Source of the DNA: a virus
DNA: 64,000 nt
Reading direction: 5' to 3' (one strand)
Virus record (IMG/VR): IMGVR_UViG_3300034158_000010
Span: 1 to 64,000 of that record
Position numbers and translations under genes: made by a program. The stretch's first letter is position 1, and the number at the start of each line of letters is the position of its first letter. Under the pieces are notes generated by a model. That model was not told the DNA's origin, did not search any database, and saw nothing but the letters and a program-made list of their open reading frames with translations. Shown here piece by piece: positions 671 to 23,202 of this stretch.

Positions 671-940
671 ATGAAGATATCAGATATACTGACCATTGGC
701 TTCTGCTTCTTGTTCGTCTGGTTCATCGTCATTCCATCTTTTACAGAAGACATCCGTCCTGAAAAGGTAAAGTGGGTCGAGGACAGCCGAAACGGTTGCA
801 CGGTACAGCAGCAGTTCCCGATCTACAACGAACAAGACCACGTCACCAAAGCTGAGTATGCTCCTAAGATCCTTACGATCTATAAGTGTAAGGGCGATGT
901 TGCAGCGGCTTTGATCCGTTCGCAAGAGGCGGTTAATTAA
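671..940 (+). CDS. Membrane-anchored hypothetical protein (paralog of 26..310)
   Basis: AGGAG before ATG at 671; TM helix followed by Cys pair. Confidence 0.7.
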   Translation: MKISDILTIGFCFLFVWFIVIPSFTEDIRPEKVKWVEDSRNGCTVQQQFPIYNEQDHVTKAEYAPKILTIYKCKGDVAAALIRSQEAVN

Positions 941-1079
941 TGTCGTGGGAAGAAGAGTTTGAACCAGGTCCGCCGGGTAACCCCATGGACTTCTTCTGGT
1001 TGATGGTATTCGTTGCTAGTGGTGTGGGTACCATCTATCTGGTTACTAAATTCACAAATTTCCTGTTTGGAGCATAAGC

Positions 1080-1373
1080 ATGTTTGATAAAGGTATGACA
1101 ACTGCATTTATGTCGCTACTGGGCCAGAACATGGCTCAACCGGCTGAAAAAGAATTGGTGATCCGCTGTAGCTTCAAAGGTATCACTTACGGCGGGCTGA
1201 CTACCATTGATTTGCCATACCGGTATACGTCATTCACTAATGCCCGTACCGCTAAGTCGGTCTTCCGGTCACTCGGTGAGGATGTACTAGACGTGATCCG
1301 CCGTGCGGGTGGCCGAATCAGTGATGAACAACGTCACACCGTAACCTTTGCGATCTGTGACGCCCGGAGCTAA
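1080..1373 (+). CDS. Hypothetical protein
   Basis: GGAG RBS, tightly packed operon. Confidence 0.7.
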   Translation: MFDKGMTTAFMSLLGQNMAQPAEKELVIRCSFKGITYGGLTTIDLPYRYTSFTNARTAKSVFRSLGEDVLDVIRRAGGRISDEQRHTVTFAICDARS

Positions 1374-12237: not shown

Positions 12238-12582
12238 ATGTCAGCTCCATTGAACATCTATAAGCTGTTTCGTAAAAGTGTTACCAGTCGCCGTTGGGAT
12301 CGAGTTGATGCGTACGTAGCTATCGCAGCTACGCCGGAAGAAGCTCTTTACTCACACGCTGTCCGGTTGGCCGCTTTCGAAAGCATCACTGGGATGGCAT
12401 ATGACGAAGAAGTAAACCAGGAACTGGAAGCTGAGCTTGGTTTGAAGTTGATGCCGCTCACACCGGCAGAAGCAGTACACTATAACCTCGAAGTACCTGA
12501 ATGGGAAGTTACGTGGCTTGGTCAAGCTACTGAAGTCCCACAAGAAATCCAGGTAGTCTGTGTGTCGTACTGTGAACGATAA
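12238..12582 (+). CDS. Hypothetical protein
   Basis: AAGGA RBS before ATG 12238. Confidence 0.7.
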   Translation: MSAPLNIYKLFRKSVTSRRWDRVDAYVAIAATPEEALYSHAVRLAAFESITGMAYDEEVNQELEAELGLKLMPLTPAEAVHYNLEVPEWEVTWLGQATEVPQEIQVVCVSYCER

Positions 12583-12608
12583 AAAGAATACTGTGAATGT
12601 AATTATAT

Positions 12609-13075
12609 AGGAGCAAATGCTCCCGCATGATAAACGAGGTAGCTATTAGAGCAAGTTTATTATGCGACCCTCTTCTGGAACATAGCCACGGCTGTGATCT
12701 AAACGAACAGGGGTTCGCAGGGGCTATCTCTCTAACCAGGGTCCCCGTCACCATAAGCAATAGGTTAGATGCCTTGCTCGAACCCCGCCTAAGCATAACC
12801 TAACTTTCGGTATAAGTGAAGCGCTGCCACAACCGGCACGTCTTGTGAAGAACATAGTGACCATAATACCAATGGTCGAACCGAAGCGCTGTGCCCTTGA
12901 TTGGTACTCATTGGGATGGCGAAGTTATTAACGACATAACGATCGTGGATGCGGTCTTATTAGAAGATAGCGACTGGTGCGTGTGATGCTTCTGGAATAC
13001 TGGAAGCTACAGCTGGCCAGCACACAGGTACCAGATTAAACCCCAAGCCCCCTACCGTCTGGTGGGGGCTTTATT
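12609..13075 (+). ncRNA. Candidate large structured non-coding RNA (~460 nt)
   Basis: ORF-free gap in a densely coded operon; many nested helices with G-U pairs on the + strand; ends at a hairpin terminator. Confidence 0.6.
13046..13075 (+). terminator. Hairpin terminator
   Basis: AGCCCCCTACC-GTCT-GGTGGGGGCT-TTATT. Confidence 0.75.
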
Positions 13076-13094: not shown

Positions 13095-13295
13095 ATGCAA
13101 TTACGCGACGAGTTGTTTAAGCTGTATCAACCGGTGCAACACAACGCTAACCTGTTTGTACGCTGTAGACATCATCCGGTTCAATTGCGAATCGTAGCTA
13201 AAGCACGTTATGGCGTCTTACTCCGTAACGAACCAATTGGCGCGGCCAGTAAGTTTGCTACTGACCTTATCACATACCGCAACTACATTGACTAA
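13095..13295 (+). CDS. Hypothetical protein
   Basis: AAGGAG RBS. Confidence 0.65.
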   Translation: MQLRDELFKLYQPVQHNANLFVRCRHHPVQLRIVAKARYGVLLRNEPIGAASKFATDLITYRNYID

Positions 13296-13305
13296 GGAGT
13301 AACTC

Positions 13306-13605
13306 ATGAAACGTTCTAATAACACCGGTCCATTGCATGCCGCTTACTATCTCATCGAGGCCGATGGTGAGTACAAGACTGCCATTCTGGAATACTTGGA
13401 GAAGCAAGCCGCTGATCCAAAGGCTTGGGGGTCTAACTCCTCCCGGTTTGATCTGGATGATCTGGTGGCGCGCCACCGTATCAATGGTAATCGTCAGCTG
13501 CCGCGTGAATACCCATTCATCATGACAGTTAACATCGACAACGAGTACAACCGTCTGACGGTTCACTTCATTACCGAAAACATGTTTGATCAGGAGCCCG
13601 TATGA
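13306..13605 (+). CDS. Hypothetical protein, paralog family B
   Basis: YPFIMTVNIDNEYNRL. Confidence 0.75.
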   Translation: MKRSNNTGPLHAAYYLIEADGEYKTAILEYLEKQAADPKAWGSNSSRFDLDDLVARHRINGNRQLPREYPFIMTVNIDNEYNRLTVHFITENMFDQEPV

Positions 13606-14015
13606 AAAAGCTACGTGATGGTGTTTACCGCATTGAGCGGATGTTGGAATTGCAAGCTATGGTGGACGAGTACATTCTCCAAGTTGGTGAGGATCGTGAA
13701 GACATCGCTGTAAGTTATGGTCTTATTCCACCTGCCTTTCCTTTCCTCGCCGTGATCGACTTCAGTGATGAGTATTACACGCTCAGTATTGAGTACATCA
13801 CCTTGTGTGATTTCGAAGAGTCCTCGGACGATGCAGTGCATCTGTTCGAATTCGAGATTGAACGCACTGCTCTGGAATCCCCATACACGGTGCGCCGTTC
13901 GACGTATCAAGTCCCCGCGCCGGATATCCTCAAGGCTATCTTGCAACTCGGTCAGACTCATCACCGTGATGAAGTCTACGATCTCAAAATTGTCAAATGG
14001 AATCAAGTACGATGA
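13602..14015 (+). CDS. Hypothetical protein, paralog family B
   Basis: FPFLAVIDFSDEYYTL; ATGA overlap. Confidence 0.75.
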   Translation: MKKLRDGVYRIERMLELQAMVDEYILQVGEDREDIAVSYGLIPPAFPFLAVIDFSDEYYTLSIEYITLCDFEESSDDAVHLFEFEIERTALESPYTVRRSTYQVPAPDILKAILQLGQTHHRDEVYDLKIVKWNQVR

Positions 14016-14512
14016 AAAGACTAGCGCAGTATAACGGCGGCATGCGTTCGGGTATCTACAAGTACCTCATCGAAAATGATGTTGAATTGGAACAGGCCGT
14101 CGAAGAAGCCTGTACCGATATGGGTATGTCCGTTAAGGACCATGGTTACGGTCTTGATGACGTACCTAAAAACTACCCGTACATCGCACTAATTCACCCT
14201 GACAACGAATATAGTCGTATTGACTATGCTTTCGTTGAGATCGCTGACTTCACTGACAACAGTGAAGAAGGTACATTACAGATGTTGTTGAATGCTACGT
14301 ATAACGATACTACCATGGCACCGTGGATCGAACGTATTCGCAACGCTCAACGCCGTGGTGACCTTGAGGTCGATTTCAACGATCTTGACGATGCATCTAA
14401 CCCTAGCAACGAACGCTCGGTTAACGATCATCAGATCGAGTACATTCGTCAAAAAGGTTATACCGTACGGTGGGAGAAATACCCACGGTCTTATATCGTC
14501 TCGGGCTGGTAA
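14012..14512 (+). CDS. Hypothetical protein, paralog family B
   Basis: YPYIALIHPDNEYSRI; ATGA overlap. Confidence 0.75.
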   Translation: MKRLAQYNGGMRSGIYKYLIENDVELEQAVEEACTDMGMSVKDHGYGLDDVPKNYPYIALIHPDNEYSRIDYAFVEIADFTDNSEEGTLQMLLNATYNDTTMAPWIERIRNAQRRGDLEVDFNDLDDASNPSNERSVNDHQIEYIRQKGYTVRWEKYPRSYIVSGW

Positions 14513-22978: not shown

Positions 22979-23063
22979 TGGTGGAGAGACAAGGATTCGA
23001 ACCTTGGAAGAATTAACGCCGGATTTACAGTCCGGTCCCTTTGAGCCGCTCGGGAATCTCTCC
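22979..23063 (-). tRNA. tRNA-Tyr(GTA)
   Basis: 85 nt; CT-GTA-AA; long variable arm; encoded CCA. Confidence 0.95.
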
Positions 23064-23159: not shown

Positions 23160-23192
23160 TTACATAGTATTACATAACCAGTATAGTTTTAA
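23160..23192 (-). promoter_or_regulatory. Probable middle/late promoter of the tRNA operon
   Basis: AAAACTATAC...TATGTAA on the minus strand; TATG marks phiKZ late starts. Confidence 0.5.
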
Positions 23193-23202
23193 TTTATACT
23201 GT

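Follow-up and report, generated by a model that had tools for sequence, protein, structure and literature searches.

A family of predicted structured non-coding RNAs in nucleus-forming Pseudomonas jumbo phages combines a conserved hairpin core with optional flanking domains

Non-coding RNAs (ncRNAs) of nucleus-forming jumbo phages are almost unexplored, and reviews of these phages state merely that phiKZ 'expresses non-coding RNAs' (PMC13282480). The closest described systems come from transcriptome studies, in which terminator-bounded intergenic and '5'UTR-derived' (5' untranslated region-derived) ncRNA candidates were mapped by ONT-cappable-seq, differential RNA-seq (dRNA-seq) and Grad-seq (PMC10914365, PMC11512511, PMC8545117). 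Abundant terminator-bounded short RNAs were found downstream of promoters in both phiKZ and 201phi2-1 (PMC10914365, PMC11512511). Here we describe a putative ncRNA gene in the IMG/VR virus record IMGVR_UViG_3300034158_000010, a record of 85 kb of which the first 64,000 nucleotides (nt) were analysed (hereafter the window). Comparative analysis of the gap at positions 12581-13075 on the plus strand confirmed the prediction of a self-contained structured ncRNA gene, with a promoter motif, a structure of ~465 nt and a terminator.

Judged from the main texts of the transcriptome papers, this predicted RNA is nearest in kind to the terminator-bounded ncRNA candidates that were left unnamed in phiKZ and 201phi2-1. 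They occur in the same phages and have the same layout, in which a phage promoter is followed by a short structured RNA, an intrinsic terminator and the first gene. The candidates named in these main texts lie elsewhere (PHIKZ221, PHIKZ302, PHIKZ297/298, p40 and upstream of gp182 and gp277) and none of them corresponds to this locus. Neither the flanking genes nor the coordinates of the RNA are mentioned there, and the main texts contain no description of the family, its structure or its conservation across genera. Possibly, the short form that we found in phiKZ (~125 nt) is among the 17 phiKZ candidates without a name. The screen of 201phi2-1 retained only units <250 bp (PMC11512511), and the ~470-nt form would therefore have been filtered out.

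A virion protein encoded in the window shares 64% identity with its 201phi2-1 homologue and ~50-54% with those of Phabio, PhiPA3 and phiKZ-like phages, and its relatives are found in 285 chimallivirus-type jumbo phage records. This similarity places the window in an uncultured phage related to Pseudomonas phage 201phi2-1. About 510 nt without a credible gene separate the stop codon of a 123-amino-acid (aa) open reading frame (ORF; 12580-12582) from the ATG of a 66-aa ORF (13095). A preliminary description, made from the letters of the window, had proposed a large structured phage ncRNA on the plus strand at this place, in an ORF-free gap. The term ORF-free is nearly correct: two ORFs (58 aa on the plus and 89 aa on the minus strand) overlap the RNA region, and the largest ORF-free gap of the window at a cut-off of 60 aa is 12797-13061. 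Neither strand has a conserved reading frame: stops occur in all six frames, and the open stretches vary among the homologues.

The proposed RNA itself was borne out by covariation in 13 sequences, strand-specific stability and the lack of both a conserved ORF and an Rfam match. Folding beyond dinucleotide shuffles had been set as a check beforehand, and the minimum free energy (MFE) of the plus strand was -168.8 kcal/mol compared to -141 ± 6 kcal/mol for the shuffles (z = -4.39; 0/100 shuffles equal). The minus strand reached a z of -1.84, and better-than-shuffle folding is thus limited to the plus strand. RNAalifold predicted 114 pairs for six full-length sequences, 37 of them compensatory. 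When three spurious end pairs were taken out of this structure, 94.2% of the cells were paired and 38 of the 111 pairs were compensatory with both sides changed. Not one of 500 shuffles reached the observed pairing and compensatory counts, and with the partners slid by 1-3 columns the pairing amounted to 38-44%, with 2-9 compensatory pairs. Invariant U-G pairs (e.g. alignment columns 239/330 and 370/419) would become C-A on the opposite strand, which agrees with the earlier remark that G-U pairs favour the plus strand. In 201phi2-1, two 1-nt insertions in the basal helix P1 of the core compensate each other and add one base pair. Together, the covariation, the strand-specific folding, the U-G pairs and the lack of a conserved frame show that this is an RNA, and that it is read from the plus strand. 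A search of sequencing runs with the 201phi2-1 copy revealed no RNA library carrying the locus, and the runs presumed to be RNA matched it with small shares only. Four such runs, labelled as wastewater 'RNA-Seq', each yielded a single contig of low depth (151-217 nt) that lies inside the RNA and stems from a Viktualia-like relative; these are too thin to serve as evidence of expression.

Relatives of the region were identified by blastn in Viktualia and 201phi2-1, and Phabio matched the central ~100 nt. Motif scans of IMG/VR, metagenome and genome collections added two IMG/VR genomes and one metagenome contig. Otherwise the scans returned mostly chance matches in coding sequence (L007, L010-L013, L015, L016, L039, L040, L043, L045-L050, L057-L063, L065 and L066), all of which were rejected by sequence reading or by the model. 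A covariance model built from the seven core sequences (R1) detected exactly one copy per source genome, as well as single significant copies in phiLBG22, Psa21, a phiKZ-like phage and PhiPA3 (E-values 3e-11 to 9e-6). After the model had been rebuilt from 11 sequences (R2), the copies of these four scored 1e-18 to 1e-21, and two more IMG/VR genomes were added. The family thereby comprises 13 phage sequences with one hit per genome and E-values from ~1e-43 (R1) to 1e-12 (R2). Searched with R2, Noxifer, EL, OBP, Ralstonia RP12, Erwinia RAY and E. coli Goslar yielded no copy, which, given the loose first-pass filter of this search, leaves absence unproven. On sequence evidence, the members represent one RNA family of Pseudomonas nucleus-forming jumbo phages, namely Phikzvirus, PhiPA3, 201phi2-1, Phabio, Psa21 and uncultured relatives.

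The copies differ in length, and the comparison shows a modular build with an optional 5' domain, an obligatory core of ~80 nt and an optional 3' domain of ~260 nt with a kissing loop. The short form (~125-150 nt), found in phiKZ-like phages, Psa21 and Phabio, consists of the core plus the terminator, and this stand-alone core had not been foreseen in the preliminary description. In phiKZ it is located at ~263,177-263,268, between PHIKZ288 and PHIKZ289, and in Phabio the ~100 nt of the region lead directly into the terminator, within a gap that is unannotated in the record. The long form, in which the core is joined to the ~260-nt 3' domain, occurs in nine members, i.e. the window, Viktualia, 201phi2-1, four uncultured relatives, phiLBG22 and PhiPA3. 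The 201phi2-1 copy fills an unannotated gap of 450 nt between gp424 and gp425. As a side observation, the locus L041 (IMGVR_UViG_3300042009_000063, 790-1140, minus strand) carries the core followed by a different 3' extension of ~260 nt, which lacks both the CUUUCGG/CCGAAGC and the GAAGUUAC landmark; it may represent a third architectural variant. Two annotations are also touched by the RNA. The Viktualia record (PV037725) lists two coding sequences for a 'hypothetical protein' (L001, 2488-2769 and 2849-2938) wholly inside it, which are probably spurious and would call for an annotation correction. The annotated start of 201phi2-1 gp425 (L002, 2846) overlaps the RNA terminator, and homology starts at an ATG ~70 nt downstream.

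The family-defining module is the core hairpin (12710-12786, plus strand), which emerged from the covariance models, the covariation and the folds of single sequences. It is predicted to be an irregular hairpin whose invariant elements are an AUCUC internal loop and a UYCCCGUC apical loop. From its base, it consists of the 7-bp helix P1 (GGGGTTC/GAACCCC, 12710-12716/12780-12786), a 2-nt UC bulge (12778-12779), the 6-bp helix P2 (12717-12722/12772-12777), an asymmetric internal loop with GCUAUCUC on its 5' side (12723-12730, facing UG at 12770-12771), the 7-bp helix P3 (TCTAACC/GGTTAGA, 12731-12737/12763-12769), the short helix P4 (12739-12741/12750-12752) and an apical loop of 8 nt (UCCCCGUC, 12742-12749). 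A single-stranded tail and linker follow (12787-12803), opening with a conserved RCCUA (GCCUA at 12787-12791 in the window) that is kept in alignments A3 and A4 and unpaired in all folds. Over the seven core sequences, 98.6% of the cells were paired and 9 of 20 pairs were compensatory; 0/500 shuffles reached these values, and slid controls paired at 22-50%. AUCUC, CCCGUC, a UGCC after P3 and the RCCUA of the 3' tail are fixed across the family while the stems covary. The CCCGUC of the apical loop is unchanged throughout alignment A4 and also in L041 and L064, and 16 nt at 12738-12753 are identical across the 201phi2-1-like clade plus Phabio. When the transcripts of phiKZ, Psa21 and Phabio were folded singly, the MFE structure was in each case the same hairpin plus the terminator.

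The 5' domain (12610-12699) is composed of three hairpins, H1 (12610-12623), H2 (12624-12666) and H3 (12677-12699), the helices of which are 90-100% paired with compensatory changes. It is restricted to the 201phi2-1-like clade and was found in none of PhiPA3, phiLBG22, phiKZ, Psa21 and Phabio, where the core starts 15-35 nt past the promoter. A CRISPR-repeat-like decoy in this domain had been entertained and was dropped, as the stem covaries instead of keeping its sequence.

Two parts can be distinguished in the 3' domain. Part A (12805-12921) contains P5 (TTTCGGT/ACCGAAG, 12805-12811/12880-12886), which is invariant and encloses hairpins including P5c (GACCAT/ATGGTC, 12859-12877; 6 of 7 pairs compensatory), and the covarying helix P6 (12887-12891/12917-12921). 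The loop of P5c (UACCA, 12867-12871) pairs with that of P6 (UGGUA, 12902-12906) in a kissing loop supported by covariation. In all nine long forms an invariant CCA/UGG is flanked by a Watson-Crick pair, which is A-U, U-A or G-C, and in L064 the second flanking pair has changed from A-U to G-C. These pairs were read straight from the sequences, since the loops come to lie one column apart from sequence to sequence in the MAFFT alignment. Part B (12924-13034) consists of P7 (12924-12929/12966-12971), the conserved closing helix P8 (CTGGT/ACCAG, 12974-12978/13030-13034), a GUG/CAC helix (12981-12983/13023-13025), P8a (GCTTCTGG/CTGGAAGC, 12988-13007), which is supported by covariation, and P8b (GCU-GGCC-AGC, 13012-13021). 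P7 and P8 covary by changes from C-G to U-A and from A-U to G-C. Across eight 3' domains, RNAalifold counted 28 compensatory pairs among 59, in support of P5, P5c, P6, P7, P8 and P8a. CUGGCCAG, the P8b hairpin, is invariant in the eight long forms of alignment A5 and in L064, and in PhiPA3 the pair flanking or closing P8b has changed from G-C to A-U. The GGCC loop of P8b is self-complementary, and such a palindromic loop could mediate dimerisation of the RNA. A pattern search of phiKZ, Psa21, Phabio, Noxifer and the genome carrying L041 did not find the 3' domain as a gene of its own.

Many helices had already been named in the preliminary description. GGAGC/GCTCC (12610-12623), a 12-bp helix (12624-12635/12655-12666), CATAGC/GCTGTG (12681-12696) and GGGGTTC/GAACCCC enclosing TCTAACC/GGTTAGA are each upheld by covariation, and TTTCGGT/ACCGAAG, GACCAT/ATGGTC, GTGTG/CACAC, P8a and the terminator are likewise among the covariation-supported helices. 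The suggested pseudoknot between TACCAAT and ATTGGTA persists as the loop-loop contact of 9/9 long forms with its covarying flanking pair. Three other proposals are not supported, being confined to this window and in conflict with conserved helices: a closing helix TTGATTGGTAC/GTACCAGATTAA, which gives way to CTGGT/ACCAG as the conserved closure; GTTAT/ATAAC, where the conserved helix is 12924-12929/12966-12971; and a TAGGTTA/TAACCTA switch. The repeated GAAGCGCTG is present in the window and is not conserved as a repeat.

A promoter motif (12581-12609), noted earlier as a promoter-like stretch, precedes the RNA. It comprises an A-rich tract, TACT (12589-12592), TGTAAT (12598-12603) and TATA (12606-12609), and the pattern of A-rich tract, TAC(T), N6-8, GTAAT, N2 and TAT is kept upstream of every family member. 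The phiKZ class that it resembles is that of the middle promoters, in which TACT is centred 22 nt before the transcription start site and preceded by an A-rich repeat (PMC8244752, Wicke et al.). From the fit to this middle-type promoter we infer a start of the RNA near 12611-12613. The same motif (ATACTG, N3, ATGTAAT, N2, TAT) is found at the tRNA operon of the window (23160-23200, minus strand, upstream of tRNA-Tyr at 22979-23063), which suggests a shared promoter class for the non-coding RNAs of the phage. At its 3' end the RNA has its own terminator, as had been claimed: a consensus scan placed an intrinsic terminator with a G+C-rich hairpin followed by UUUAUU at 13047-13075 (plus strand), and each homologue has a hairpin plus UUUAU behind the RNA. 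The terminators of the short forms are of the generic UUCG-loop type, with an A/U-rich linker between P1 and the terminator. In all members the next gene starts 20-45 nt beyond the terminator, and expression downstream therefore relies on read-through. This constant position between a promoter and the first gene of the downstream block had escaped the preliminary description.

Under gathering thresholds, cmscan of the whole window yielded three tRNAs only and no match at the RNA. At E <= 10, a comparison of the region and six homologous loci with Rfam gave only weak terminator-type matches on the RNA, the best of which was to a terminator-like hairpin, nse_sRNA, with 23 bits compared to a gathering score of 75. 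The RNA thus belongs to no Rfam family, including ROOL and GOLLD, in agreement with the earlier statement that it is neither of the two. Like ROOL and GOLLD, which often occur in phages and prophages, it is a large, intricate ncRNA with long-range and loop-loop contacts. It differs from them in being smaller (~465 nt), in its architecture, in the existence of a stand-alone 80-nt core form and in being confined to one clade of Pseudomonas chimalliviruses. We describe it as a new RNA family with a covariation-supported structure, with invariant loops that can be mutated and with natural short and long versions. With phiKZ, PhiPA3 and 201phi2-1, its members include the three best laboratory models, and it thus becomes testable whether structured RNA serves such phages in the control of their own polymerase, of their mRNAs or of host or phage proteins.

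Regarding the function, we consider it moderately probable that a stable RNA is released and acts in trans through its two core loops. The non-virion RNA polymerase of the phage would start at the middle-type promoter and mostly halt at the terminator, freeing the RNA as a discrete product, which would then present the AUCUC internal loop and the UYCCCGUC apical loop to its partner. A protein partner, for which the RNA would be a scaffold or decoy, is more likely than an RNA partner. The terminator would incidentally restrict read-through into the promoterless downstream genes, and the kissing-loop domain of the long forms may add stability or a second binding surface. The clustering of conserved nucleotides in loops, whereas the stems covary, is counted in favour of such a trans-acting RNA, as are its independence of the neighbouring genes and the precedent of terminator-bounded short RNAs in phiKZ and 201phi2-1. 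Two observations weigh against it. In every case a promoter precedes the RNA and a promoterless gene block follows it, which is equally the layout of a cis-acting leader. Furthermore, no extended conserved complementary target was found within the phage genomes, apart from one lead of 7-9 nt, and the full 14-16-nt complement of the loop has no other conserved occurrence in them. Complementarity to or mimicry of host rRNA was dropped, as a match of 6-8 nt would lie within chance, and so were GGA or A-rich motifs titrating RsmA or Hfq, as these are not conserved across the members.

The main alternative, which we regard as rather unlikely, is that the RNA is instead a cis-acting leader, in which the core is read by the phage RNA polymerase or a bound factor in the manner of put/nut sites, riboswitches or attenuators and sets the read-through at the terminator, the short RNA being a by-product. 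This would explain the order of promoter, RNA, strong terminator and gene start 20-45 nt further on, without space for a promoter, that is found in 13/13 members, and it would fit the short forms, in which the core lies only 15-35 nt past the predicted start. Moreover, Putzeys et al. described two modes, short RNA or read-through, for many terminators in the 5'-UTRs of phiKZ (PMC10914365), and the 201phi2-1 study raised the suspicion of antitermination (PMC11512511). The downstream genes, however, are unrelated between clades, so that no gene-specific logic is apparent, and each genome holds one copy. No conserved pairing was found to compete with the terminators, which are of the generic UUCG-loop type and separated from P1 by an A/U-rich linker. 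Finally, the core and the terminator of the long forms are set apart by ~260 nt of RNA with a conservation and a tertiary structure of its own, which is hard to reconcile with a simple leader.

A more specific version of the leader, which we rate as slightly more doubtful still, is that the core is a cis RNA signal for the sigma-less multisubunit non-virion polymerase, or for a factor riding on it, and chooses between termination and read-through at the start of the gene block. The kissing-loop domain of the long forms would then make the released RNA a stable second product, and the core would be the first RNA-based transcription control element described for the polymerase of a nucleus-forming phage. 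Similar to HK022 put and lambda nut, it is promoter-proximal, located upstream of a terminator, structured, present once or twice per phage and independent of the downstream gene. While put consists of two adjacent hairpins and nut of boxA and a small boxB hairpin, the core is a single irregular hairpin from P1 to P4 with other conserved loops, and the polymerase would here be the sigma-less multisubunit enzyme of the phage. With terminating riboswitches the family shares the conserved structured element followed by an intrinsic terminator in the leader of all members, and the long forms share the kissing loop known from purine, lysine and cobalamin aptamers. In contrast to riboswitches, the downstream genes share no function, their families differ by clade and are without known domains, and there is no match to an Rfam aptamer. 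An antiterminator pairing exclusive with the terminator was seen neither in the MFE and centroid folds of three short forms nor in a non-exhaustive inspection of the alignments.

Returning to action in trans, the RNA might also be a base-pairing small RNA (sRNA), the CCCGUC loop of which pairs with the 5' arm of a conserved hairpin in the mRNA of an internal head protein (phiKZ gp92 and orthologues) and alters its translation or stability, but we consider this improbable. A search for the loop complement in four complete genomes detected a unique hairpin, G(A/G)CGGGG-N5-CCCG(U/C)C, near codons 14-22 of the gp92-family gene in phiKZ (NC_004629, 91,697-91,720), PhiPA3 (~86,789), Psa21 (~86,083) and 201phi2-1 (~98,220). 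It occurs once in each of five further genomes (including Phabio, 94,521, and Viktualia, 193,044, as well as L133 and L134), where it is known by sequence only. A compensatory change from A-U to G-C distinguishes the clades, and the hairpin looks like a conserved mRNA structure. It is perfectly paired, and its 3' arm repeats the apical-loop motif of the ncRNA. That all four phages carry it at a matching position of the orthologous gene speaks for pairing, as do the complementarity of its 5' arm to the loop of each phage over 7-9 nt and the rarity of GACGGG in phiKZ (24 sites compared to ~137 expected). Short forms of the RNA also resemble classical trans-acting sRNAs of bacteria and phages with a Rho-independent terminator: they have their own promoter, a hairpin with a conserved single-stranded loop, an A/U-rich segment ahead of the terminator hairpin and a U-tail. 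The long forms differ from typical base-pairing sRNAs in their much greater size and more intricate fold. The match is short, though, and one conserved match of this length is about what chance would give across 300-kb genomes. In addition, GAC has become GGC in the hairpin of the 201phi2-1-like phages with an unchanged RNA loop, leaving a G-U pair, the site is located ~45 nt inside the coding region, and the AUCUC loop would stay unexplained.

Ribozymes and riboswitch aptamers typically contain kissing loops, multi-helix junctions and invariant internal loops, and the strongly conserved structure with these features might suggest a compact fold that forms an active site or a ligand pocket. 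We nevertheless hold a ribozyme or metabolite-binding RNA to be very improbable: the window and its six homologues have no match to an Rfam ribozyme or riboswitch even at E = 10, no invariant junction resembling a cleavage site is evident, and the short form is a single hairpin. Least credible of all is that there is no RNA gene, with the two hypothetical proteins annotated in Viktualia and the 58-aa and 89-aa ORFs of the window taken as signs of short coding ORFs, or the conservation ascribed to a protein-binding or replication site at the DNA level, since no frame is conserved, indels are not multiples of three and compensate across a helix, substitutions keep the pairing, including G-U pairs valid on the plus strand only, and the gap carries no annotation in the records of 201phi2-1 and Phabio.

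As context of the RNA, the first downstream gene of the window (13095-13295, plus strand) encodes a protein of 66 aa without a known family and begins 20 nt past the terminator, with no space for a promoter of its own. Its homologues are limited to Phabio and the 201phi2-1-like phages, in which a block of small paralogous proteins is shared downstream of the RNA, and unrelated genes occupy this place in the other members; phiKZ, Psa21, PhiPA3 and phiLBG22 have a protein of 225-254 aa there. Profile comparison revealed no relation between the two downstream gene sets. A 171-aa protein family of the window was considered as a counterpart of the phiKZ gp289 family on one weak pairwise match (E = 7e-4) and was rejected at a profile-profile probability of 0.07%. 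The proteins immediately upstream differ between the phages, without conservation of the upstream neighbour. No Pfam domain was detected in the neighbouring proteins, and only two upstream proteins were assigned to PHROG families, both of unknown function. Gene identity around the RNA is thus not conserved. Further downstream (13306-14512, plus strand), three consecutive small genes encoding 99, 137 and 171 aa match overlapping regions in related phages and appear to be paralogues of one family heading the block downstream of the RNA.

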